Shown here piece after piece: positions 11,608 through 62,013 of a stretch of DNA of 64,000 bases. The number at the start of each line of letters is the position of its first letter. Positions within the stretch are counted from its first letter, which is position 1. The position numbers and the translations under genes are program-made. The DNA lies in assembly GCA_035765135.1 (NCBI GenBank), contig DASTYE010000118.1, forward strand, positions 13,477-77,476, given 5' to 3'. The DNA comes from Gemmatimonadaceae bacterium (GTDB lineage Bacteria; Gemmatimonadota; Gemmatimonadetes; Gemmatimonadales; Gemmatimonadaceae). The notes under the pieces are model-generated. The model did not search any database and was not told where the DNA came from. It saw nothing but the letters and a program-made list of their open reading frames with translations.

Positions 11608-11636
11608 CGCAGCAGCTCCTACAACACGGCAAAGAC

Positions 11637-11711
11637 GACAGAATTCAGAATACAGAATTCAGATGTCAGAGGTGGGGCCTGAATTCTGAATTCTGTATTC
11701 TGAACTCTGTC
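11637..11711. repeat. tandem-repeat palindrome A (7-nt period)
   Basis: Left arm GAATTCA GAATACA GAATTCA G. 16-nt spacer. Right arm CTGAATT CTGAATT CTGTATT CTGAACT CTGTC. Outer GACAG/CTGTC closes the stem. Lies between the lpd stop and the lipB start. Confidence 0.85.
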
Positions 11712-11734
11712 CTCTCTGCCGTTCCCAACGGAAA

Positions 11735-13163: not shown

Positions 13164-13254
13164 GAACGAGGAACGAGGACAAAGGACCGAGGAATTCATT
13201 TCGAGGAGAGCTCGTTCAATCGAATTCCTCGGTCCTTCGTCCTCGTTCTTCGTT
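13164..13254. repeat. tandem-repeat palindrome B (7-nt period)
   Basis: Left arm GAACGAG GAACGAG GACAAAG GACCGAG GAATTC. 24-nt spacer. Right arm GAATTC CTCGGTC CTTCGTC CTCGTTC TTCGTT. The arms are near-perfect complements. Lies between the E2 stop and the lpd start. Confidence 0.9.
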
Positions 13255-14646: not shown

Positions 14647-14738
14647 GAATGAGGAACGAGGACGAAGGACCGAGGAATCTGATCGGCAGGATGGCCACCC
14701 GATGGAATTCCTCGGTCCTCAATGCTCGTTCCGCGTTC
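14647..14738. repeat. tandem-repeat palindrome C (7-nt period, paralogue of B)
   Basis: Left arm GAATGAG GAACGAG GACGAAG GACCGAG GAAT. Right arm GAATTC CTCGGTC CTCAATG CTCGTTC CGCGTTC. Shares GAGGAACGAGGAC(A/G)AAGGACCGAGGAAT and GAATTCCTCGGTCCT with B. Lies between the pdhB stop and the E2 start. Confidence 0.85.
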
Positions 14739-17945: not shown

Positions 17946-18053
17946 GGGGGTCGAGGGTGTCAAGGGTGTCGAGGGTGTCGAGGTGAATCGCTTTCACCTC
18001 GATCGCCTCGACACCCTTAATCCCTCGACACCCTTAATCCCTCGACACCCTTG
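17946..18053. repeat. tandem-repeat palindrome D (9-nt left arm, 17-nt right arm)
   Basis: Left arm GGGGTCGA GGGTGTCAA GGGTGTCGA GGGTGTCGA GGTGA. 8-nt loop. Right arm TCACC TCGATCGCC TCGACACCC TTAATCCC TCGACACCC TTAATCCC TCGACACCC. Overlaps the 3' end of the upstream oxidase gene. Confidence 0.85.
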
Positions 18054-19992: not shown

Positions 19993-20163
19993 CTGGGGCT
20001 TTGGCCCAGCTACAGCGGGCCAGGGGCCAAGGGCCAGGGGGTGTGGAAAGGCGCGGCGCCGCTTCGCGGCAGCCGCGCTCATCTGATGAGCAACCGGCCG
20101 CGCAACGCGCCGCCGGTTGCCTTTCAACCCCCTTGGCCCTTGGCCCCTGGCCCTTGGCCCAGC
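19986..20163. repeat. compound palindrome E (12-bp hairpin plus 7-nt-period arms around a structured spacer)
   Basis: GCTGTAGCTGGG/CCCAGCTACAGC hairpin (19986-20016). Left arm GGGCCAG GGGCCAA GGGCCAG GGGG (20017-20041). Spacer of about 86 nt. Right arm CCCC CTTGGCC CTTGGCC CCTGGCC CTTGGCC (20128-20160). Lies between convergent genes. Confidence 0.85.
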
Positions 20164-45865: not shown

Positions 45866-46843
45866 CTATTTCCCCTCATCGAGACACCAGCTCGACCGCC
45901 CTCGGAAAACCTCCCGCCAGCGCCCGTTCATCCACGCCAGCACGACCAGCGACGATTCCTGTCCGATGCCCCACTCCTCGGCCACGATCTCGTCGATACC
46001 GTCGCCGGTGACGTCGAGATGGTCGAAGAATCGGCGGTACACGGCGTTCGAGATCGGCCCGTTCACGACGTGGGCCATTGTCGGCGCATAGCCCTCGCCG
46101 TCGCGGTCGGCGATGACGAAGAGATGGACCGTGTTCGTCGTTGGCGAGCTCGCATCGGCCGCCGTCGGGTCGATGTAGGAGGCGACGATCGTCGGCGAGT
46201 CAGTAGCGCCGGTATTGATCGCCACCGCCCGGTAGTCGAGCGCATCGAGCATCTTCCAGTCGATGTTCTCGGGCGCGCCCGCCTCAATGGCGACGTCGCG
46301 GCCAGCCTTCCGGAGCTCGCCGCCCGAGAGGGACTTGGCGCTGTGGGACTGCTGGCGGGTGAACGAGCCGGCGAGCGCCTCGACGGTGTAGGAGGATTTC
46401 GTCAGTCCGGCGACGCTGACGGCCGCGAGCGGTGTCAGGGCCTGACAGCCGGGCAGGGTGTAGAGGGGATTCTCCTGACGCTCCCACATTCCCTGGCGGA
46501 CGGTGGCCGTGCCCTGCGCGCGGCCGCCCTGATAGACCTTGTACGCCTTGCCGCGGCGCATGTACATCGCGTCGAACTGGTGCCACCCGGTTTGCGACAG
46601 AACGATCTTCTTGAGCTGTCCGCCCTCGACGGCCGCGATCGGGATCATTCGCGGGTCCTCTCTCTCTCCGAAAACCTGGAAGAGGATGTCGGGGCGCGCG
46701 GCGAGATTCAGCGCCTCGCTGGGGGCGACCTGCGGAGGAGCCGGCTGCTCTCCTCCGATGAACCCTTTCGCCTTGTCACACCCAGTGACCACCGTTACGA
46801 TGCTCACCAGTGTGGCGATTCGCTTGATGACGGACGCGCGCAT
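45866..46843 (-). CDS. hypothetical lipoprotein
   Basis: ATG at 46843 gives MRASVIKRIATLVSIVTVVTGC (lipobox). The ORF is open to 47077. I recognise no family. Confidence 0.45.
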   Translation of the reverse strand: MRASVIKRIATLVSIVTVVTGCDKAKGFIGGEQPAPPQVAPSEALNLAARPDILFQVFGEREDPRMIPIAAVEGGQLKKIVLSQTGWHQFDAMYMRRGKAYKVYQGGRAQGTATVRQGMWERQENPLYTLPGCQALTPLAAVSVAGLTKSSYTVEALAGSFTRQQSHSAKSLSGGELRKAGRDVAIEAGAPENIDWKMLDALDYRAVAINTGATDSPTIVASYIDPTAADASSPTTNTVHLFVIADRDGEGYAPTMAHVVNGPISNAVYRRFFDHLDVTGDGIDEIVAEEWGIGQESSLVVLAWMNGRWREVFRGRSSWCLDEGK

Positions 46844-46907
46844 CAACTCGCGGAAGTGAAGACGAGAGCACGGTCGCTGAACGCGGCCGATCGGCGGGAC
46901 TGAGACG

Positions 46908-47906
46908 GTGGCAGTGGAGCAGAGGCAGCGGGACTCGAACTCCCCCTCCATACCCGTGGCGAGCTTCCACGATGCGGTGCGCTTCATCGCGCACCGCATG
47001 CCCGGCGTTGCCACCGTCAGCAGCACGGCACCTTCGCTCGAGCGGTCCGAGGGTACCCACGAATCACCCCGGGTCATAGACGCGCAAGTCGTTGAAAGTG
47101 CAACGACAGCGCGCCCGGTCGATGGCCCGGTGACGGCGACCTTTGCCGCCTTTCTCGACGGTGTTCAGGAGAGCCGCGTCGTCAATATTCTCCGGGGCGT
47201 GCCTCTCGTTTGGGGGCGCATCGCGGCCGCCGTGCGCCGCCGGATCGATCGCCGGCTCCGGACGTGGGAGAGCCCCGTCGTCGAATGCCGGCTCTATGCG
47301 CCACTCTCCCTCCTCGACGGCACCACCCGCGCTTTCCTGGCCGACACCCCCATCGTCGACACGACCCGGGCGGAGGAGGACGCATCCGCCTCGCGACATC
47401 CCGCGCACATCATCGAGCAGGCGCTGCACGCCGTGCAGCGCGACCGCGAGCGCGCCGAGCGGGCCCTCGCCGAGCGGTGGTGTCGCACGGTCGGCGAGCC
47501 GTTGCTCGTGGATGGGAGCATTTCCGCGAGCGACATCGTCGCTCGACACACCTGTGCCGTCGGGGTGATCAAGACCCACCGCCAGCTCTATGCGTCGGGC
47601 GACATGCTGGACGTGATCCTCGGGCTCTCCGAAGGAGAGCGGACACCGGTCGTCCGTATTGCGCCGCGGAACCGAACGCCGGTCCACTCCTGGTACCTGC
47701 GTTTGCGTGATGGAGCGCCTCACGATGCGTTGTGGGGAATCGTGCGCGTCGAGGTGGCCGAGTCGAACGACCCCACGACACGCGCCGATGATGTTTCTCG
47801 CTGGGTGATGGCCGAGCGCGCACCGCTGGCGCTTCCGGATTTCCGGTGGGATCGAATGGCGTACCCTGTTCGTGAGTGCGAGGAGTTCCTGCGTGCGATT
47901 TCCTGA
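46908..47906 (+). CDS. NurA-like nuclease (putative)
   Basis: Lies immediately upstream of the herA-like gene. Two xDG motifs sit at the positions expected for NurA catalytic aspartates (AAFLDGVQES and PLLVDGSISASD), with an acidic helix between them and a C-terminal YP...E motif. The start is uncertain (46908 is the upper bound, ATG at 46998). Confidence 0.45.
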   Translation: MAVEQRQRDSNSPSIPVASFHDAVRFIAHRMPGVATVSSTAPSLERSEGTHESPRVIDAQVVESATTARPVDGPVTATFAAFLDGVQESRVVNILRGVPLVWGRIAAAVRRRIDRRLRTWESPVVECRLYAPLSLLDGTTRAFLADTPIVDTTRAEEDASASRHPAHIIEQALHAVQRDRERAERALAERWCRTVGEPLLVDGSISASDIVARHTCAVGVIKTHRQLYASGDMLDVILGLSEGERTPVVRIAPRNRTPVHSWYLRLRDGAPHDALWGIVRVEVAESNDPTTRADDVSRWVMAERAPLALPDFRWDRMAYPVRECEEFLRAIS

Positions 47907-47916
47907 TGGCGGAGCC

Positions 47917-48028
47917 GTCAGCGGTCAGCAAATGCGGAACGCTGAATGCGGATTGCGTGAGAGAGCCTCCGCTGGGCAATCTCATCGGCAATCCGGATTC
48001 CGCATTCCGCATTTGCTGACCTCCTGAC
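47917..48028. repeat. tandem-repeat palindrome F (7-nt period)
   Basis: Left arm GTCAGCG GTCAGCA AATGCGG AACGCTG AATGCGG ATTGC. 31-nt spacer. Right arm GCAATCC GGATTCC GCATTCC GCATTTG CTGACCT CCTGACG. Lies between the nurA-like stop (47906) and the herA-like ATG (48055). Confidence 0.85.
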
Positions 48029-48054
48029 GTCTCTGCCCTTCTAACCGAGATCAC

Positions 48055-50025
48055 ATGCCCGATCCAGCCCGGCCTCGCACGTTAGGCCGTGTCGTCGCAA
48101 CGGAGCGCCGACCCAACACGCCTCACGAGTTCCATTTCTGGACGGCGGTGGATTCGCCCGTCGGCATCGGAACGATCGTGCGCGTGGAGGGCACGCGGGC
48201 CGTGGACGGACACATCCCGCGCGTGTACGGAGTCGTCGTCGACGGGTTCAGCTTCACCGATCTCCTCTCGCCCCTGCACGACGTGCTCGGTCACGATGGC
48301 GATCCCGCATCGTCGGCGATCGCGCCCACGGAGCGTCCCGAAGTGCGGCTCTACACGGCCGCCGTGCTGCGGCAGATCCCGGAGGAACCGCTTCAGCCCG
48401 TTCCCATGGGCGAGGTGTTTCTGGCGACTGATGAGGATGTGAGTCTCGCGCTGCGGATGGACACGTACACGCGGGAAGGCGCGCGGACGGCGATTCCGAT
48501 CGGACTCTACCGGGCCGGCGGCATGGACTCGCCGATCTATCTCGACGCCGATTTCCTCGTCGGTCCCGAGGCGGCTCATCTCAACATCACCGGCGTTTCG
48601 GGACTGGCGACGAAAACGAGTGCCGTCGAATTCATCCTCGCCTCGCTGTTCGCGCATTTTCCGGAGAGCAAGGGCTCCGTCGCGGCGGTCTGCTTCAACG
48701 TGAAGGGCCCCGATCTCTGCTACCTGGATCAGCCGGGCGACCTCGACGCGAACGACCTCGCCATTTACGACCGCCTTCGCGTGCCGGCACGGCCGTTCGA
48801 CCGCGTGCGGTACTTCGCGCCCTACAAGGCGAACCTGACATCGCTGAACACGCTGCGCTCCAACGAGGAGCTGATGCATAACGTCACCCCGCTCACGTGG
48901 GGACTCCGCGAGGTGCTTCAGTTCGCCGAGGTCATGCTTAACCGCGATGACGTGGACGCGAAGGCGGACGCGCTCATCGACTTCATCAAGGAGCGTCTGC
49001 TCGATCGCGAGTACACCGATGCCGCGCTTCTCGCGGGCAAGCGCTATCGCGTGCAGTCGTTCGCGGACCTGGAGGCCTGGTTCCGCGACGTCATCATGGC
49101 GCTCGAGCAGAAGGGGAGTGAGGGGTACCGGACGCACCACATCGCGACGATTCGAAAGGTCCGCAACCGTCTCTCGAACATCTCGCTGCGGTGCGCGGGG
49201 CTCGTCACCGACGACGGCTCGGTGAGCGACCTTCCCTGGGGGACCTTCGAAGACCGGTCGGTGTATGTGATCGACGTCGCGGGTGCGGAAGAGGATGCGC
49301 AGGACCTCATCTTCGCGCGCATCGTGTCGAAGCTGCGCGAGCACCTCGAGCGACGCGACCTCGGTGTCAGCCACGTCGTCGTGTTCGTCGACGAGCTGAA
49401 CAAATACGCGCCCGCGGACGGTCCCGATACATACGTCCGGAAGATGCTGCTCGACATCGCCGAGCGAGGGCGATACCTCGGCCTCGTGCTGTTCGGCGCG
49501 GAGCAGTTCCGGTCGCAGGTCCACCGTCGCGTGGTCGGCAACAGCGGGACCGCGCTCTTCGGCCGCATGGATGGGGACGAGCTGGCCACGCCGGGCTACG
49601 CCGTGCTGAGCCCCGCGACGCGCACGAAGCTGGCGACGCTCGCCAAGGGAGAATTGATGGTGCGGCACCCGCACTTTACACAGCCGATTTTTCTCAAGTT
49701 TCCGCGCCCCGCCGTGCTGCGTGGGCGCGATGGTGTCGAGCGCTTCCCGCAGGCGACCGAGGCCTCCTTCGAGACATCGCTCTTCCGTACACTGCGCCAG
49801 CTGGACCCGAGCATCCCGCTCGTCTGGGTTCAGGACATGGTGGCACTGTACGATGAGCCGGATCTCATTCGGGCCCGCAACGCGACTATGCAGGCGCGTC
49901 CCGCGGACGTGAAGGCGTTCTTCGCGTCGCGACTGCGCAACATCATCCCCGCGCAGCCGGTGACCGCGCCTGTTACCGCGTCGCCGTTGCGGTCCCTGCC
50001 CGCCGATGATCCGTACGGGTCGTGA
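48055..50025 (+). CDS. HerA-like hexameric ATPase/translocase (DUF87 family)
   Basis: N-terminal HAS-barrel-like segment (GRVVATERRPNTPHEFHFW...IGTIVRVEG). P-loop-like NITGVSGLATKTS. Walker B HVVVFVDELNKYAP. LVLFGAEQFRSQVHRRVVGNSGTALFGRM is typical of the HerA C-terminal region. Confidence 0.6.
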   Translation: MPDPARPRTLGRVVATERRPNTPHEFHFWTAVDSPVGIGTIVRVEGTRAVDGHIPRVYGVVVDGFSFTDLLSPLHDVLGHDGDPASSAIAPTERPEVRLYTAAVLRQIPEEPLQPVPMGEVFLATDEDVSLALRMDTYTREGARTAIPIGLYRAGGMDSPIYLDADFLVGPEAAHLNITGVSGLATKTSAVEFILASLFAHFPESKGSVAAVCFNVKGPDLCYLDQPGDLDANDLAIYDRLRVPARPFDRVRYFAPYKANLTSLNTLRSNEELMHNVTPLTWGLREVLQFAEVMLNRDDVDAKADALIDFIKERLLDREYTDAALLAGKRYRVQSFADLEAWFRDVIMALEQKGSEGYRTHHIATIRKVRNRLSNISLRCAGLVTDDGSVSDLPWGTFEDRSVYVIDVAGAEEDAQDLIFARIVSKLREHLERRDLGVSHVVVFVDELNKYAPADGPDTYVRKMLLDIAERGRYLGLVLFGAEQFRSQVHRRVVGNSGTALFGRMDGDELATPGYAVLSPATRTKLATLAKGELMVRHPHFTQPIFLKFPRPAVLRGRDGVERFPQATEASFETSLFRTLRQLDPSIPLVWVQDMVALYDEPDLIRARNATMQARPADVKAFFASRLRNIIPAQPVTAPVTASPLRSLPADDPYGS

Positions 50026-50863
50026 TCGCGTGAACCTCCTCGCCAGGCGCTTCGCGCGCGCGTTCGCGGTCGTGAGCGGAGCATCGGGGCTTCTCGCCGC
50101 GCAGAGCGTCACGCTCCAGATCAAGCCAAAGGTCGGTGACACGTTGCGGCTGCGCATCGAGCAGGAGATGGAGATTACGGCCGTCGGTCGGATGCGCGAC
50201 GTCGATACGACGATGACGATGCGCTCCTCCATGCTGATGCTCTCGCGGTCGATCGTCGTGCTCTCGGATGATGACGGGACGACCGTTCGCTCCATTACCG
50301 ACTCCATAGCCGTCAATCCCGGCGCGCTCGATCCGCGCCTTGACCAGGTGCGCCGCGCGCTGCAGGGGAAGGAGGTCCGCGTTCGCTTCTCTCGCGAGGG
50401 GTCCGCGACGCTCGTGGAGGCGGATCCCGAGCTCCCGCGCGATCTGCGCTCGGTTTTCTCCCAGCTCCCGGCCACATTCCCGCGGCACCAGGTTTCCGTT
50501 GGAAGCACCTGGAAGCAGCGCATTCCAATCCCGGACGCCGCCCAGGGTCAGATCGCCGGGACGCTCCAGGCAGTGTTTCGGCTCGACTCGCTGACGAGTC
50601 GGGGGAAGCGGGCGTTCATCTCGATGCGGGGTACGCTGACTCGAGATTCGACGGCGAGCGCGATGGCCGATGGCGGGCGAATGACGATGACCGGGACCGT
50701 CACCGGGTTCATGATTCTCGACCGTGTCCGCGGATGGGTCATCGACGCGCTCACCGAGATGTCCGTGCAATCGCACATCGAGCCGGCCGCGGGGAAGGCC
50801 CTGCCCCCCGTCAAAATGCGAATGCGGCTGATTCAGAGGCAGCGCACTATGGACAAGGACTGA
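50006..50863 (+). CDS. hypothetical secreted protein embedded in the repair cluster
   Basis: N-terminal basic region plus hydrophobic core and AQS cleavage-like site (RRFARAFAVVSGASGLLAAQS). Beta-rich sequence with no recognisable family. ATG at 50006 overlaps herA by 20 nt. An alternative GTG lies at 50030. Confidence 0.45.
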   Translation: MIRTGRDRVNLLARRFARAFAVVSGASGLLAAQSVTLQIKPKVGDTLRLRIEQEMEITAVGRMRDVDTTMTMRSSMLMLSRSIVVLSDDDGTTVRSITDSIAVNPGALDPRLDQVRRALQGKEVRVRFSREGSATLVEADPELPRDLRSVFSQLPATFPRHQVSVGSTWKQRIPIPDAAQGQIAGTLQAVFRLDSLTSRGKRAFISMRGTLTRDSTASAMADGGRMTMTGTVTGFMILDRVRGWVIDALTEMSVQSHIEPAAGKALPPVKMRMRLIQRQRTMDKD

Positions 50864-50921
50864 GCGAACCCGCTATCCTCTTAGGAGTATTACAGTTAGC
50901 CGAATTTCTCCCGAGGATGGC

Positions 50922-52121
50922 GTGCGGCTGGTACACATCTCCGACCTGCATCTCGGCTTCCGCCAGTATCATCGCCTGACCCAGTCGGGCATAAACCAGC
51001 GGGAGGCTGACGTCGCGAACGCGTTCCGTGGCGCGATCGATCGCATCATCGCGCTCGAGCCCGACGTCGTGGTATTCGCCGGGGACATTTTCCACACCGT
51101 TCGCCCAATGAACCCGGCGATCATTCACGCCTTCAACCAGCTGGCGCGGCTCACGCGGGCGCTGCCCAACACGCTCGTCGTGATGGTAGCGGGCAATCAC
51201 GATCGCCCGCGCGCTACGGAAACGGGGTGCATCCTCCGCCTCTTCACGATTCTCGGCGTCCATGTGGTCGACGCGGAGCCGCGACGGCTGATGTTCCCCG
51301 AGCGCGATTTGGCCATCCTCGCGGTCCCGGACGTCATTGGTGACTACCCGGCTCTGCTGCCCGATCCCGCCGTTAGGCACAACGTGCTGCTGCTGCATGG
51401 CGAGGTGGAGGGAATGCTGCCGCCGAGCGCCGTCCGGCTCGATCGCGCCGCGATGGAGATTCCACTCGACGCCATCGGCGCGCCGCGCTGGACGTACGTC
51501 GCGCTCGGTCACTATCACGTGCACCGCCAGATCGCGCCGAACGCGTATTACTCCGGGTCGATCGATTACACGAGCACCAACCCCTGGGGCGAGCTGGTCG
51601 AGGAGCAGCAAGCCGGTCTTCCGGGGAAGGGGTTCATCGAGTACGACCTCGAGACCGGCGCGCACACTTTTCATGCGCTCGAGCCGTCGCGTCGCCTCAT
51701 CGATCTCCCCGGCGTCGTCGCCCGCGGGCTCACGGCGGCCGAGGTGGACGTCGCGATTCACGACGCGGTAGCCGGGTGCGTCGACGGCATCGAGGACAAG
51801 ATCGTGCGACTCGTCGTCCGTGATGTGCCACGACACATCGCGCGCGAGCTCGATCAGAAGGCGCTGCGCGACTACCGGCGCCGTGCACTGTATTTCCATC
51901 TCGACACGCGTCGCCCCGAGGTGATGCGAATCGCCGCGAGCGGCGCGCCTGGTCGGCGACCCACGCTTCGCGAGACCGTCGAGTCGTACCTCGGCAAACG
52001 GTCCCTCCCGTCCGGCGTGGAGCGCGACCAGCTGGTGCAGCTCGGCACCTATTACCTGACCGAAGCGGACGCGGCGGCCAATGTCGCCTCAGCCGGTACG
52101 CCATCTCCGTTAGGCGGCTAG
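50922..52121 (+). CDS. Mre11/SbcD-family DNA repair exonuclease (calcineurin-like phosphoesterase)
   Basis: MRLVHISDLHLG (motif I), VVFAGDIFH (motif II), VMVAGNHD (motif III), LLLHG and ALGHYH. GTG start with AGGA upstream. Confidence 0.85.
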   Translation: MRLVHISDLHLGFRQYHRLTQSGINQREADVANAFRGAIDRIIALEPDVVVFAGDIFHTVRPMNPAIIHAFNQLARLTRALPNTLVVMVAGNHDRPRATETGCILRLFTILGVHVVDAEPRRLMFPERDLAILAVPDVIGDYPALLPDPAVRHNVLLLHGEVEGMLPPSAVRLDRAAMEIPLDAIGAPRWTYVALGHYHVHRQIAPNAYYSGSIDYTSTNPWGELVEEQQAGLPGKGFIEYDLETGAHTFHALEPSRRLIDLPGVVARGLTAAEVDVAIHDAVAGCVDGIEDKIVRLVVRDVPRHIARELDQKALRDYRRRALYFHLDTRRPEVMRIAASGAPGRRPTLRETVESYLGKRSLPSGVERDQLVQLGTYYLTEADAAANVASAGTPSPLGG

Positions 52122-54592
52122 TGCTGCTCAACCGCCTCGTCCTCCAGAATTTCCGCCAGCACGCGGACAGCCGGATCGAATTCGGCCCGGGAGTGACGGG
52201 CATCATTGGTCCGAACGGGGCGGGGAAGACCACGATCCTCGAGGCGATCGCCTGGGCGATCTACGGAAATCCCGCCGCGCGGGGCACCCGTGATTCCATC
52301 CGCTTCAACCGCGCCGGCGCGCGCTCCGGCGTGCGAGTGGAGCTCGACTTCGATCTCGGCGGACACAACTACCGCGTCGTTCGCGGGCTGACGAACGCCG
52401 AGCTGTATCTCGACGGTCCCCACAACAAGATCGCCGACTCGATCACCGGTGTCACCGACGTGCTCATGCGCCGCCTGGGGATGACGCGTGAGGAGTTCTT
52501 CAACACGTACTTCACCGGCCAGAAAGAGATCAGCGTGATGGCGGCGATGAGTCCCACGGAGCGCGCGCAGTTTCTGTCGCGCGTGCTCGGGTACGAGCGT
52601 TTGCGCGCCGCGCAGGAGCTCGCGCGCGACCGCCGTCGCGCGATCGTCGCCGAGATCGCCGGGCTCAGGCAGGGAATGGGCGACGCGGACGCCATCGCGA
52701 GACAGGTCTCCGATGCGGAAACGCGGCTCGGACAGGCCCGCGACCGCGCTCGATTTGCCGAACGCCGGCGGGATGCGTCGCAGGCCGCGCTCGAGGAAGC
52801 CCGTCCGCGGTGGGAGGCCGCGCAGCGCGCGCGCGAGGCGCATCAGGCGCTCCTCGCCGATTTACGCGTCGCCGAGCAGCAGGAGGCAGCCGAGGATCGC
52901 GAAGTGCAGCGCGTCGAGCGCGACCTCGGCGACGCCGCGAATGCACGTGCCGAGCTGGAGCGACTTCGCGTCGAGCTGGAGCCGTTTCAGCTCATTGCCT
53001 CGGAGTTTCAGCGCCTCGACGTGCTGGCGCGGGAGGAAGGTCGGCGGCGCGCGCTTCTCGAAACGCAGGCTGCCATCGCCGACGACCTGGTTCGACTGCG
53101 CGACCGTCGCGCGAAGCTCGAGAACGCTCCGGCGCTCGAGACCGAGATCGATGCTGCGCTCGTCGCGAAGCGCGCCGAGTTCGAGGCGACCGACGGGCTG
53201 CTCGAGGCGCGGCGCACCGAGTGGGTGCGCGATCGTCAGGAGGCGGAGACGAAGCGACAGGCCCTCCGCGAGCAGTACACCGAGCTGAAGGAACAACGCG
53301 ATCGCATCGTCAGCCTCGGCGCCGAGGGAGCCTGTCCGACGTGCGCGCGCCCACTGGGCGAAACGTATCGCGCGGTGCTCGATCTTCTCGATGAGCAGCT
53401 CGAGACGGTTCGTGTCGACGGCAACTACTACAAGGCGCGCTTCGAGCAGCTCATGGAGATGCCGGAAGACGTGCAGGCGCTCGATGAGCAGCGTCGCGCA
53501 TTGTCGCTCGAGGTATCGACGCTCGAGCGCCGCCTCACGAAGATCCAGCTCGCGGTGCAGGAGCTGGCGCACGTGGAATCGGACGTCACCGGCAAGAGCG
53601 AGCGGGCCGCCCAGGTCGCGGCGGAGCTGGAGGCGATTCCACCCGGATACGACGCCGCGCGTCATGACAAGCTGCGCGCCGAGATCGAGCGCCTCACGCC
53701 GCTCGACGCGCGCGCGGCGCGCCTGAGTGCGCAGCTCGAGCGCGTGCCGCAGCTCGAGCGCGAGCGTGCGTCAGCGGTCGAACGGTTGGGCGCCGTTCGC
53801 GCGCGATTGCGGGCGCTTCAGGCGCGACGCGAGGAGACGACGATCCCCGAGGCGGATCACGAAGCACTACGGGCCGAGTACGAGCGCGTGCGAGGCGAGG
53901 CCCACGCCGCCGACCTGGCGCTGGTACAGGCGCAAGGCGAGGAGCTGAGCGCGCAATCCGCGCTCGAGCGTGCGAGATCGATCGCGGCGGAGCTCGCCGC
54001 GCGTCAGCGAATGCTCGGTGAGCTCACCGCCAAGAAGCTGCTGCACGACGAGCTGGACCGCGCCTTCACCGACTTGCGGACCGATCTCAACTTCCAGCTG
54101 CGCCCCGAGCTCTCGGAGCTGGCGAGCGGCTTCCTGAGCGATCTCACCGACGGTCGCTACGGCGAGCTCGAGCTCGACGACTCCTACAACATCGTAGTGC
54201 TGGAAGACGGCGTGCCGAAGCCAGTCATCTCCGGCGGCGAGGAGGATCTCGCGAATCTCGTCCTGCGCCTCGCGATCTCGCAGATGATCGCGGAACGCGC
54301 CGGACAGCCGCTCTCGCTGCTCATCCTCGACGAGATCTTCGGGTCGCTCGACGAGGCGCGGCGCGCGAACGTGCTCGACCTGTTGCGGCGGCTGCAAGGA
54401 CGGTTCGAGCAGGTCATCCTCATTACGCACATCGAGCAGGTCCGCGAGTGTGTCGATCGCGTCATCTCGGTCCGATACGACCAGGAAAGCGGGAGCTCGG
54501 TGGTCGAGCAGACGACGCCCGAGTTTCCCGACCTCACCACACCGCCGGTTGCGGGGGATGAGGTGTACGAGGCGGCGGGAGCCGGCGACTGA
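52121..54592 (+). CDS. Rad50/SbcC-family SMC-like ATPase
   Basis: LVLQNFRQH...GIIGPNGAGKTTILEAI Walker A, a long coiled coil with the CPTC zinc hook (GAEGACPTCARPLG), signature SGGEEDLANLVLRLAIS and Walker B LLILDEIFGSLD. The start overlaps the mre11 stop (TAGTG). Confidence 0.9.
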   Translation: MLLNRLVLQNFRQHADSRIEFGPGVTGIIGPNGAGKTTILEAIAWAIYGNPAARGTRDSIRFNRAGARSGVRVELDFDLGGHNYRVVRGLTNAELYLDGPHNKIADSITGVTDVLMRRLGMTREEFFNTYFTGQKEISVMAAMSPTERAQFLSRVLGYERLRAAQELARDRRRAIVAEIAGLRQGMGDADAIARQVSDAETRLGQARDRARFAERRRDASQAALEEARPRWEAAQRAREAHQALLADLRVAEQQEAAEDREVQRVERDLGDAANARAELERLRVELEPFQLIASEFQRLDVLAREEGRRRALLETQAAIADDLVRLRDRRAKLENAPALETEIDAALVAKRAEFEATDGLLEARRTEWVRDRQEAETKRQALREQYTELKEQRDRIVSLGAEGACPTCARPLGETYRAVLDLLDEQLETVRVDGNYYKARFEQLMEMPEDVQALDEQRRALSLEVSTLERRLTKIQLAVQELAHVESDVTGKSERAAQVAAELEAIPPGYDAARHDKLRAEIERLTPLDARAARLSAQLERVPQLERERASAVERLGAVRARLRALQARREETTIPEADHEALRAEYERVRGEAHAADLALVQAQGEELSAQSALERARSIAAELAARQRMLGELTAKKLLHDELDRAFTDLRTDLNFQLRPELSELASGFLSDLTDGRYGELELDDSYNIVVLEDGVPKPVISGGEEDLANLVLRLAISQMIAERAGQPLSLLILDEIFGSLDEARRANVLDLLRRLQGRFEQVILITHIEQVRECVDRVISVRYDQESGSSVVEQTTPEFPDLTTPPVAGDEVYEAAGAGD

Positions 54593-55566
54593 TGGCGACG
54601 GCGCGCACGTGGCGCTCTCATCATCAGGCCGAAGGCCCCCAACCCGCGCGCCTGGATGACATCGCGGGGCTGAACCAGGTCTTCAGCGATGCGTTCAGCG
54701 AACGCTACCGTCGCGATGGAATGGTCGGGGTGCGCGTTCCCTTCCTCAATCCCGCGATCTGGCGATACGCGATCGAAGATGCCAGCGGCGGCGCGCTGGT
54801 CTGGCGCGATGACCGCGAGGAGATCGTGGCGTTCAACATCGCGCATCGGTCGGGCGTCGAAGGCTGGATGGGCCCGCTGGCCGTCAGACCGGACTGGCAG
54901 GGCGCCGGGCTGGGCAAGGAAATCGTTCGTGGCGGCATTGAATGGCTGCGCGCCGCGGGTGCGGCGACGATCGGGCTCGAGACGATGCCGCGCACGATGG
55001 ACAACATCGGCTTCTACTCCGGGATGGGATTTCTCCCCGGGCGCCTGACAATCACCCTGACGCTCGACGCGGGGCTGCTCGGCAACGGGCCGAACCTGCT
55101 CGGTCGTCTCCCCGCCCGCGACAAGGACGACGCGATCGATGAATGTCGAGCGCTCACGGACACGCTCGCGCCCGGGCTCGACTTCACGAGGGAGCTTGCC
55201 CTCACCGACCAGCTGGCGTTAGGCGATACGGTGCTGCTCCGCGAGCGGGGGCGGGTGGTGGGGTTCGCGCTCTGCCATACCGCGCCGCTCGTCGAGGGAC
55301 GCGTGCGCGAGGAGATGCGTGTGCTCAAGCTCGTGCTCGAGCGCGAACAGGACCTCACTCGTCTCGGCGAGGTGCTGGTTGACTATGCACGCCGGAGCGG
55401 CACGCGTCGCGTCGCGCTCCGCGTGCAGACGGAGTTCCTCGGTGCGTATCAGACGCTGATCGGCATGGGCGCGCGCGTTCGCTGGACCGATCTGCGGATG
55501 ACCCTCGCGGACATGCCGGAGCGCCTGCCGAAGCGCGGCGTCGTCTGGTCGAATTGGGAGATTTGA
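54592..55566 (+). CDS. GNAT-family N-acetyltransferase (two-domain)
   Basis: LAVRPDWQGAGLGKEIVRGGIEWLRAAGAATIGLET matches acetyl-CoA binding motif A (Q/R-x-x-G-x-G/A). The start overlaps the rad50 stop (TGATG). Confidence 0.7.
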   Translation: MATARTWRSHHQAEGPQPARLDDIAGLNQVFSDAFSERYRRDGMVGVRVPFLNPAIWRYAIEDASGGALVWRDDREEIVAFNIAHRSGVEGWMGPLAVRPDWQGAGLGKEIVRGGIEWLRAAGAATIGLETMPRTMDNIGFYSGMGFLPGRLTITLTLDAGLLGNGPNLLGRLPARDKDDAIDECRALTDTLAPGLDFTRELALTDQLALGDTVLLRERGRVVGFALCHTAPLVEGRVREEMRVLKLVLEREQDLTRLGEVLVDYARRSGTRRVALRVQTEFLGAYQTLIGMGARVRWTDLRMTLADMPERLPKRGVVWSNWEI

Positions 55567-61277: not shown

Positions 61278-61922
61278 ATGTTCATCGAGCTGGTCGAGTC
61301 GCTCCGCTGCCCCCGCCCGCACGACTTCACCTGGCTGGTGGCCTCCACGCTCGAGATGGCGGGGCGCGACATTCGGCGCGGGCTGCTTGGCTGTCCCGCG
61401 TGCAGCGCGCGCTACCCGATTCGGGATGGAATCGTCGATTTTCGGACGCGGGATGGCACGACACCGATTCCCGATTCCCCGCCGCTTGCCAGTGCGCCCA
61501 GGGACCCCGATCTCGCGACGCGTGCGGCCGCGCTCCTCGACCTAACGAGTCCCGGCGGGTTCGTCCTGCTCGCCGGCTCGTGGAGCCTGGCCGCGCCAGC
61601 GCTGCGCGACCTCATCGAGGGGGTTGAGCTCCTGGTTCTGAATCCGACGATCGCGCTCGCCAGCGGCGACGGTATCTCGCTCGCGCGTACCGATGGCTCG
61701 ATCCCGATTCGACCGGCCGCGGCGCGAGGGATTGCGCTCGATGGGGGTCACGCCGCGCACGTGGACGGCGCGGCCACCGCCCTTCGTCAGTTCGGCCGTC
61801 TGGTGGCGCCCCTCAGGGCGACGCTGCCGTCGGGTCTCGAGGAGCTCGCTCGCGACAAGTCCGACTGGGTCGCGACCAAGCGGGTGGCGACATCGGAAGC
61901 CGTGCCGCTGAGGAGAGGCTGA
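61278..61922 (+). CDS. Trm112-like zinc-ribbon N-terminus fused to an unknown domain
   Basis: LRCPRPH...LLGCPACSARYPIRDGIVDFR matches the Trm112/DUF343 pattern (C-P..C...Y.I.DGI). The remainder is not recognised. Confidence 0.35.
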   Translation: MFIELVESLRCPRPHDFTWLVASTLEMAGRDIRRGLLGCPACSARYPIRDGIVDFRTRDGTTPIPDSPPLASAPRDPDLATRAAALLDLTSPGGFVLLAGSWSLAAPALRDLIEGVELLVLNPTIALASGDGISLARTDGSIPIRPAAARGIALDGGHAAHVDGAATALRQFGRLVAPLRATLPSGLEELARDKSDWVATKRVATSEAVPLRRG

Positions 61923-62013
61923 GGTAGTCGAGGTCGTCAAGGTCGTCGAGGTGCTCGAAGTGAAGCTTGTTCACCTCGATACCCTGGACGACCTCGGCGA
62001 CCTCGACGACCTC
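61921..62013. repeat. tandem-repeat palindrome G (9-nt period, homologue of D)
   Basis: Left arm GAGGTAGTC GAGGTCGTC AAGGTCGTC GAGGTG. 18-nt spacer. Right arm CACCTCGAT ACCCTGGAC GACCTCGGC GACCTCGAC GACCTC. Shares the GTCGAGG..GTCAAGG..GTCGAGGTG...TTCACCTCGAT core with D. Lies between convergent genes. Confidence 0.85.

Follow-up and report, generated by a model that had tools for sequence, protein, structure and literature searches.

Results

A conserved gene cluster in Gemmatimonadota

We analysed a cluster of putative DNA end-processing genes in a 64,000-nucleotide (nt) stretch of DNA from a Gemmatimonadaceae soil bacterium (assembly GCA_035765135.1, contig DASTYE010000118.1, positions 13,477 to 77,476), called here the window; unless labelled otherwise, coordinates are those of the window. 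In the list of its open reading frames (ORFs), six ORFs run head to tail on the plus strand between 46908 and 55566. The first gene, nurA (46908..47906, +; 332 aa, GTG start), encodes a bacterial-type NurA nuclease (RNase H-like) and is separated by a spacer of 148 nt (47907-48054) from herA (48055..50025, +; 656 aa, stop codon at 50023-50025), which encodes a bacterial-type member of the HerA hexameric translocase ATPases. These are followed by the gene of an exported DUF6263 protein (50030..50863, +), an optional member of the cluster whose ORF opens at an ATG at 50006, and, after a gap of 58 nt, by mre11/sbcD (nuclease, 50922..52121, +; 399 aa), rad50/sbcC (ABC-type ATPase, 52121..54592, +; 823 aa) and the gene of a two-part GNAT acetyltransferase (54592..55566, +; 324 aa). 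The last three genes are joined by 1-nt overlaps: the mre11 stop and the rad50 start share one nucleotide in TAGTG (52119-52123), and the rad50 stop and the GNAT start share one in TGATG (54590-54594). This layout, described in the original prediction made from the sequence alone, was borne out by the DNA and by the gene calls of a close relative (HerA 91% identical, 1.02-Mb contig), where an independent gene caller placed six matching genes (332, 654, 281, 399, 823 and 324 aa) with a rad50/GNAT overlap also of 1 nt. The G+C content was 64-69% across the window; the cluster equals its flanks and shows no compositional break.

Conservation was analysed in the best 80 loci, one genome per species, picked by HerA similarity; all of them are from Gemmatimonadota, and their HerA identity ranges from 61 to 91%. 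Neighbour genes were located by tblastn with the six window proteins, and the denominators given below are the loci informative for each junction. The database matches of HerA and NurA carry Gemmatimonadaceae names. The locus was found in 80/80 species genomes (all retrieved via their HerA homologue). nurA was directly upstream of herA in 70 of the 73 loci with enough upstream DNA, and mre11-rad50 lay downstream of herA in 65/65 (mre11 at a distance of at most 1.2 kb in 61 loci, and of at most 6.4 kb in the other four, which harbour insertions). The mre11/rad50 overlap is typically -4 or -1 nt in the relatives. Gene order is kept in essentially all of the 80 species genomes, so the adjacency is not fortuitous, a possibility that the original prediction had left for a neighbourhood survey to settle.

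The flanks of the cluster in the window encode a DbpA-type helicase, an aminotransferase, an Lrp regulator, an O-methyltransferase, an epimerase, a Na/Ca exchanger and GTP cyclohydrolase I, and the neighbourhood in the close relative adds glycine cleavage genes, CoaE and thymidine kinase. Synteny of the flanks is only partial (25-52 of the 80 loci). Since the linkage is kept phylum-wide and the flanks are housekeeping genes, the cluster belongs to the core chromosome as a conserved unit and is neither a variable island nor a chance arrangement. These results confirm that the cluster exists as described and is preserved throughout the phylum.

The insertions that split the cluster in four Gemmatimonadota genomes consist of 2.5-6.4 kb of extra genes between herA or the DUF6263 gene and mre11 (L030 12743-16296, L052 12743-15475, L053 12755-18302 and L060 1915-4446). 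One of the ORFs inserted in L030 looks, by eye, like a zinc-type alcohol dehydrogenase or quinone oxidoreductase.

NurA and HerA

NurA (46908-47906) gave no Pfam match (including the NurA family PF09376, the check first proposed for it) and no NCBIfam match, even at E=1, and its identity came from sequence, profile and fold comparisons with the Protein Data Bank (PDB). As its database homologues also carry no Pfam annotation, the bacterial NurA subtype appears too divergent for the curated Pfam model. The single sequence matched Deinococcus radiodurans NurA (drNurA, 7f6d_H) weakly (phmmer E=0.022), while a profile of the 31-sequence family matched it at E=5.6e-6. An AlphaFold model built on the 31-sequence alignment (predicted local distance difference test, pLDDT, 76; predicted template modelling score, pTM, 0.76) retrieved by Foldseek drNurA (7f6d_G, E=2e-13) and Thermotoga TM1739 (1zup, E=5e-12), both with a probability of 1.00 and with TM-scores of only 0.49-0.57. 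These two bacterial proteins were the sole significant solved-structure matches (Foldseek E<0.001), and the next ones were Argonaute PIWI domains, which have an RNase H-like fold. On the modelled structure, the nuclease candidate has the NurA fold, in agreement with the original prediction. Five sites of NurA (D84, E184, D202-G203, E282 and E325) were invariant in 11 sequences from Gemmatimonadota, Thermotoga, Fimbriimonadales and KSB1; by analogy, their acidic residues are placed as the putative active site.

HerA (48055-50025) was likewise without a Pfam or NCBIfam match, even at E=1. However, it matched D. radiodurans HerA (drHerA, 7f6d_B) with a phmmer E of 1.4e-44 over residues 9-565, the N-terminal region included. 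This alignment takes in the Walker B region DELNKYAP and an unusual P-loop (window NITGVSGLATKTS, drHerA NISGISGVATKTS), which in the window is GVSGLATKTS (residues 180-189; 48592-48621, +). A profile of 31 diverse homologues matched drHerA at E=6e-121 and Sulfolobus HerA (4d2i) at E=8.7e-6. The remaining significant PDB matches of the profile (E<0.001) were exclusively HerA-family or HerA-like ATPases, among them an entry deposited as 'DNA helicase' and several defence-system HerAs (8xau, 8yho and others; E 1e-7 to 4e-7), and there was no FtsK, VirB4 or TrwB among its PDB matches up to E=10. By these sequence comparisons, the ATPase belongs to the HerA clade of the FtsK-HerA superfamily and not to FtsK or VirB4, the placement that was to be checked. 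Both HerA and NurA group with the Deinococcus/Thermotoga-type bacterial clade.

K187/T188, D220 and D446/E447 of HerA were invariant or nearly so in the 31 diverse homologues, and they line up with K175/T176, D220 and D487/E488 of drHerA, which are nucleotide- and metal-binding, catalytic residues in the published structure (PMC9960219). From its homologues, HerA is predicted to form a hexameric ring with an N-terminal HAS barrel that translocates double-stranded DNA. The bacterial P-loop G-x-S-G-x-A-T-K-T-S was invariant in the 31 homologues and in drHerA, and has a threonine in place of the glycine that precedes the lysine in GxxxxGK[ST]. The alignment with drHerA stops short of a C-terminal extension of about 90 aa in the window HerA (residues about 571-656; 49765-50022, +). 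Since the tblastn alignments in Gemmatimonadota reach residue 654-656, this extension is conserved among the orthologues of the phylum, and it might be a docking region.

Mre11 and Rad50

Mre11 harbours all five phosphoesterase motifs (DLHLG at residue 8, GDIFH at 54, GNHD at 91, LLLHG at 156 and GHYH at 196). It matched Pfam Metallophos (E=2e-10) and the NCBIfam models sbcd (1.8e-20) and Mre11_Sulfo (3e-19), and scored 73.9 bits against TIGR00619, slightly below the cut-off of 77.65. Its best solved relatives were Mre11 of Methanocaldococcus jannaschii (2.7e-15), then of Pyrococcus furiosus, then of Thermotoga maritima (3e-6).

Rad50 has a Walker A motif (GPNGAGKT at residue 30), a signature motif (SGGE at 704), a Walker B motif (LILDE at 734) and an H-loop (ITH at 768), and it matched Pfam AAA_23, SMC_N and SbcC_Walker_B. 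The sole CxxC of the protein is the CPTC at residues 405-408 of 823 (codons 53333..53344, +; translation checked), and a zinc hook CP[TI]C was present in 62 of the 62 Rad50 orthologues spanning the region. Among the NCBIfam models, the archaeal Rad50 model PRK03918 scored 1.8e-63 vs. 1.9e-28 for sbcc. The PDB matches were Rad50 of M. jannaschii (1e-31), P. furiosus (1e-27) and T. maritima (3e-26); for Mre11 and Rad50 alike, the archaeal structures scored slightly above those of T. maritima.

The GNAT acetyltransferase and the exported DUF6263 protein

The product of the last gene matched Pfam Acetyltransf_1 (E=2e-14, 54.2 bits vs. a cut-off of 20.7), as did 26/26 of its orthologues. The GNAT domain spans approximately residues 57-147 and is accompanied by a conserved C-terminal half with an invariant SNWEI end. 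The nearest solved relatives of the GNAT profile were the protein N-acetyltransferases RimI (1.5e-7) and Naa30. The C-terminal half had no match in sequence and profile searches; a second, degenerate GNAT domain was looked for with hhalign, which aligned only 14 columns of the N- and C-terminal halves (probability 1.3%). The single-sequence structure model of the protein had a pLDDT of 34.5.

The GNAT gene was directly after rad50, and usually overlapping it, in 53 of the 54 informative loci, which are mostly from Gemmatimonadales; the sole locus without it was in a Longimicrobiales genome. No rad50-GNAT coupling was seen in the few contexts examined outside Gemmatimonadota, and distant homologues of the two-part GNAT occur in unrelated metabolic contexts, for example in Gloeothece. 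That the GNAT gene accompanies rad50 almost without exception points to a functional link, and the GNAT is probably a dedicated accessory of the machine encoded by the neighbouring genes. It may be a protein acetyltransferase that targets a component of this machine or its substrate.

The 285-aa ORF at 50006-50863 matched Pfam PF19777 (DUF6263; 38.6 bits vs. a cut-off of 26.7, E=1e-9), with a match that spans the C-terminal half of the model only, and the product of the close relative carries PF19777 too. The orthologues share an N-terminus in which a basic stretch is followed by a hydrophobic one and by A-x-A|Q, as in signal peptides, so the protein is exported. A GTG at 50030 lies 4 nt past the herA stop, and the gene called in the close relative starts at the same spacing; this GTG is probably the real start of the gene. 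Matches between herA and mre11 were found in 41 loci, plus eight divergent copies detected with a hidden Markov model (HMM), while herA directly adjoins mre11 in about 22 loci. The six family assignments of the original prediction held on profiles, motifs and the NurA fold. It had set the GNAT and the exported protein apart as extras, and their status turned out to differ: the GNAT equals the core genes in conservation (53/54), and the exported protein (49/71) appears to be an optional, dispensable passenger.

The spacer hairpin and the upstream region

The nurA-herA spacer contains an imperfect hairpin of approximately 130 nt (47908..48037, +; core listed at 47923-48021) made of AATGCGG-type heptads. 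Its 34-nt arms are 91% complementary and are extended by outer arms, and it folds with a free energy of -92.5 kcal/mol (z=-10.8). In most relatives nurA and herA abut or overlap, indicating that the hairpin is a lineage-specific insertion. The closest relative has another repeat-built hairpin (CAGAATT/CAGAATA) in the same spacer (L001 6430-6525), and the window contains six further ones (11626-11722, 13165-13254, 14647-14738, 17962-18018, 20017-20153 and 61921-62013), one of them of the CAGAATT type. Such hairpins are long and imperfect and consist of tandem 7-9-nt repeats, for example CAGAATT/CAGAATA, ACGAGGA, GGGCCAG, AATGCGG and GAGGTCGTC. The similar hairpins elsewhere and the variant swap in the relative indicate a genome-wide family of intergenic elements, and they look like the repetitive extragenic palindromic (REP) or miniature inverted-repeat transposable (MITE) type of element of Gemmatimonadaceae. 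A cluster-specific regulatory RNA was considered and rejected, on account of the six other sites in the window and the different variant in the closest relative. Rfam had no match in the window, the hairpins included.

Upstream of nurA, on the minus strand, there is a conserved lipoprotein gene (45866-46843, -) without Pfam assignment. Its start was placed at approximately 46843, on the basis of the stretch that is conserved in alignments of its orthologues and of a lipobox-like N-terminus (MRASVIKRIATLVSIVTVVTGC). This start leaves a divergent intergenic region of 64 nt ahead of nurA (46844..46907), which is the presumed promoter region. The lipoprotein gene was found in 25 of the 80 loci, and in many others nurA comes straight after an Lrp/AsnC-family gene instead. 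No common motif was found among 62 nurA upstream regions, as the upstream gene varies among lineages.

Relatives outside Gemmatimonadota

Contexts outside the phylum were sampled protein by protein and via a plasmid collection. The bacterial HerA family comprises 1382 clusters (50% identity, E<1e-3) and includes members from Thermotoga, KSB1, Fimbriimonadales and Gammaproteobacteria. We checked four out-group HerA lineages with 41-48% identity. Three of them (43-48%) were without nearby mre11-rad50, two having nurA-herA and one herA alone. The 41%-identity lineage was the only one of the four with an apparent mre11-rad50 pair downstream: NurA-HerA was followed by two small genes, a 404-aa Metallophos gene and then a large gene truncated at the end of the contig. 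In the lineage with herA alone, whose HerA is 46% identical to that of the window (L088 5821-8471), no nurA was adjacent, a CorC/CNNM gene lay upstream and an SSB gene came after herA.

Several members of the family lie beside genes of other kinds. In Thermotoga petrophila RKU-10 (L082 4621-9683) and in a Fimbriimonadales genome (L084 2921-9725), a gene for an MmeI-type N6-adenine methyltransferase precedes a NurA-like gene, with which it overlaps at the ends, and herA; GmrSD is close by in Thermotoga. This set looks like a restriction-modification-like defence operon with a NurA-HerA nuclease module, and no published description of it was found in a literature search. In KSB1, NurA-HerA lies amid toxin-antitoxin genes, and in another relative it is followed by a DruA-domain protein. 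HerA relatives were also present in two phages (KP836355.1 38516-40147, from Marinitoga camini virus 1, and MT836743.1 5674-7326; 24-29% identity, >80% coverage), one of them annotated as bipolar DNA helicase HerA.

Six records of the plasmid collection had a HerA relative, and four-gene linkage was observed in the five that were inspected (in part only for Nonomuraea). The order nurA-herA-sbcD-sbcC was present on plasmids of Sphaerospermopsis (L094), Aulosira (L095) and Ca. Chlorohelix (L092). By contrast, the order in Actinomycetota was archaeal-like (herA-sbcD-sbcC-nurA): a Streptomyces linear plasmid (L091) has herA-sbcD-SMC-nurA, and in the unannotated Nonomuraea record (L093) herA, a Rad50-like ORF and nurA were detected in a similar arrangement. 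NurA was detected in each of the five records (HMM E 3e-11 to 3e-26), and GNAT and DUF6263 were absent from all five clusters. These plasmid clusters share with the window the same four families and a tight packing, and three of them also the gene order. However, they differ in their mobile setting, in the lack of GNAT and DUF6263, in a HerA identity of only 26-31% to the window and in an SbcC of the long type (about 1000-1100 aa), which is distant from the window Rad50 (E 1e-8 to 1e-11). The clusters adjoin TIR, insertion sequence (IS) and Wadjet-like genes, the latter beside the Streptomyces copy (TIGR02680, TIGR02678 and DUF2397). A gene for an ImmA/IrrE-family protease lies just upstream of the Streptomyces and Chlorohelix clusters.

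Discussion

A probable DNA end-processing machine

The family identities of the core genes were established here, and these genes have intact catalytic motifs and are tightly packed and linked throughout the phylum. We consider it probable that they form a chromosomal, vertically inherited Gemmatimonadaceae operon for a complete double-strand-break end-processing machine. In such a machine, an Mre11 dimer and Rad50, with its ABC heads, predicted coiled coil and zinc hook, would bind, tether and clean DNA ends. A HerA hexamer would then pump duplex DNA into a NurA dimer, and NurA would degrade the 5' strand, so that a 3' tail is available to RecA. Of the characterised homologues, drNurA-HerA is the closest, and it carries out ATP-driven resection of 5' ends (PMC9960219); the scheme also draws on homology with the archaeal HerA-NurA system (PMC3326311). 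The D. radiodurans pair (DR_0836/DR_0837; PDB 7F6D; PMC9960219) is also the closest solved homologue of both window proteins; it shares the deviant P-loop, the Walker B region and D220, and its two genes likewise form an operon with nurA ahead of herA. The Deinococcus pair differs from that of the window in being unlinked to sbcCD, as drawn in the context figure of PMC5448004.

The GNAT might be a dedicated fifth component that acetylates one of the four proteins or a factor bound to DNA ends, switching resection on or off. This is a tentative proposal, and we regard it as rather unlikely.

Several points weigh against the interpretation as an end-processing machine. The activities and complexes of the Gemmatimonadota proteins are deduced from their homologues, and co-transcription from the overlapping stop and start codons. 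No LexA box of the E. coli, Gram-positive, alpha-proteobacterial or cyanobacterial type was detected in the 62 nurA upstream regions, and scans for promoter and terminator consensus sequences stayed at chance level; consequently, damage-inducibility and co-transcription are unproven. The very stable hairpin may moreover uncouple the expression of nurA and herA in this lineage, and the exported protein is an odd member of an operon for DNA repair. The bacterial HerA-NurA family is not exclusively devoted to housekeeping repair either, because in other phyla its members adjoin MmeI-type methyltransferase, toxin-antitoxin, DruA or Wadjet-like genes and occur on plasmids. Finally, Thermus nurA and herA mutants are reportedly more, not less, resistant to UV, which, if it holds, leaves the part played by bacterial NurA-HerA in vivo unsettled.

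Alternative explanations

The family's neighbours outside Gemmatimonadota bear on a second explanation, in which the destruction of foreign DNA, for anti-phage or anti-plasmid defence, would be the function of the cluster or one of its functions, HerA-NurA and the SbcCD-like complex degrading linear or unprotected invading DNA. HerAs of the same family lie beside the MmeI-type methyltransferase (with GmrSD in T. petrophila, and in Fimbriimonadales), toxin-antitoxin genes (KSB1) or a DruA-domain gene. Four-gene clusters occur on cyanobacterial, Chloroflexota and Streptomyces plasmids near TIR, IS and Wadjet-like genes, Marinitoga camini virus 1 encodes a HerA, and genome protection was raised as a possibility in the archaeal HerA-NurA study (PMC3326311). 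The Sir2-HerA and DUF4297-HerA anti-phage systems likewise combine a HerA-family hexameric ATPase with an effector nuclease or NADase. However, the partner in the window is NurA and not Sir2 or DUF4297, the similarity to those HerAs is far below that to drHerA, and the locus is core-chromosomal. Defence systems are typically patchy and sited in variable islands. The locus studied here was instead present in 80/80 species genomes (picked by HerA similarity), with identities that track taxonomy, and it keeps the same chromosomal neighbourhood among housekeeping genes. Genes for Sir2, DUF4297 or a methyltransferase are found neither in the cluster nor next to it, and the cluster itself has no other determinant of self versus non-self.

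Searches of defence and phage models agree with this. PADLOC gave generic ATPase matches only (mad8 at 1e-9 for HerA, mad3/LmuB for Rad50) and none for NurA, and PHROG had no match for NurA or HerA. A MADS-like system was considered and rejected: the mad8 model also matches Rad50, indicating a generic ATPase match, and no other mad genes are present. As the locus belongs to the core chromosome, occurs in every genome sampled and has no self/non-self gene, a defence role here is improbable, and so is the suggestion of the original prediction that a HerA-nuclease defence module was recruited beside SbcCD: the locus is vertically inherited, has housekeeping flanks and matches no PADLOC system. 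For other members of the bacterial HerA-NurA family, a defence role is a live possibility.

A third explanation leaves the function as in an end-processing machine and concerns its origin: the four genes would have arrived as one complete operon from a thermophilic archaeon. The herA-mre11-rad50-nurA operon found in thermophilic archaea (Constantinesco et al. 2004, cited in PMC9960219 and PMC5448004) shares with the window the four linked families, the intact catalytic motifs and the Rad50 zinc hook, as well as the presumed division of labour (recognition and short-range processing by Mre11-Rad50, long-range 5' resection by HerA-NurA). In favour of import, linkage of the four genes is the hallmark of archaea, archaeal models give the best Rad50 scores (PRK03918 vs. 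sbcc), and the solved structures nearest to Mre11 and Rad50 are those of M. jannaschii and P. furiosus. However, T. maritima Rad50 scores nearly as high as the archaeal Rad50s, the HerA profile matches drHerA far better than Sulfolobus HerA (6e-121 vs. 8.7e-6), and the significant fold matches of NurA among solved structures are solely bacterial. The window HerA and NurA are of a divergent bacterial subtype missed by Pfam, unlike those of the archaeal operon; the order is nurA-herA-(DUF6263)-mre11-rad50, with the GNAT and usually the exported protein added; and the cluster belongs to a high-GC member of the Gemmatimonadaceae, known from metagenome-assembled genomes of environmental origin. The order nurA-herA-mre11-rad50 is that of the bacterial plasmid clusters, the GC content is the same as in the surroundings, and three of the four out-group HerA lineages (43-48% identity) have no adjacent mre11-rad50.

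The placement of HerA and NurA in a bacterial clade argues against a recent transfer of the whole unit from archaea, which we consider highly improbable. The linkage probably arose within bacteria, a bacterial-type nurA-herA pair having been joined to an mre11-rad50 pair; for the nurA-herA half, a bacterial origin is supported by the clade membership and by the out-group lineages without mre11-rad50. The suggestion in the original prediction of a genuine resection machine acquired as a unit is therefore supported as to the linkage but not as to acquisition from archaea, against which the bacterial-clade HerA and NurA, the GC content and the out-groups speak.

The same prediction regarded the four-gene linkage as an archaeal hallmark that is exceptional in bacteria. 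This was overstated: the linkage occurs on plasmids of Cyanobacteriota, Chloroflexota and Actinomycetota and in Oceanithermus, so that a hallmark absent from bacteria is too strong a description. In Oceanithermus profundus (nurA-hepA-sbcD-sbcC), sbcD and sbcC lie directly downstream of the herA homologue, and the authors describe an archaeal-like architecture of double-strand-break repair built in bacteria by recruitment (Blesa et al. 2017, PMC5448004). Oceanithermus is a single thermophilic genus of the Thermales, in contrast to the phylum-wide conservation in Gemmatimonadota, and GNAT and DUF6263 go unmentioned in the account of its locus.

Adjacency by chance or general synteny of functionally unrelated genes, to which the partly syntenic flanks (25-52/80 loci) lend some weight since relatedness may explain part of the conserved order, is effectively refuted: the cluster is kept far better than its flanks (53-70 informative loci per junction, down to 61% HerA identity), the stop/start overlaps are maintained across relatives, and the four families are linked independently in other phyla, on plasmids and in Oceanithermus (PMC5448004).

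Implications

The four-gene end-resection module was already known, and in its NurA-HerA half the present locus resembles Deinococcus. What is new here is that the module is conserved throughout Gemmatimonadota, has a probably dedicated GNAT and is frequently joined by an exported passenger. Reviews still describe long-range resection as the work of RecBCD, AddAB or AdnAB in bacteria and of HerA-NurA in archaea (PMC7752040). Our results suggest a fourth, under-appreciated bacterial route of resection rather than an archaeal curiosity, and the locus strengthens the case that resection modules of the HerA-NurA/Mre11-Rad50 kind are widespread among bacteria.

The GNAT coupled to rad50 offers a concrete, testable handle on the regulation of such a machine; if it is indeed the fifth component, it would be a case of bacterial, operon-encoded acetylation control of double-strand-break processing. 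With its core-chromosomal locus in Gemmatimonadota and its relatives on plasmids and in defence islands, the family is also a natural system for analysing how functions in repair and against foreign DNA change into one another. Dry soils are rich in Gemmatimonadota, and DNA breaks on desiccation; if this holds, the operon would be a candidate contributor to this lifestyle.

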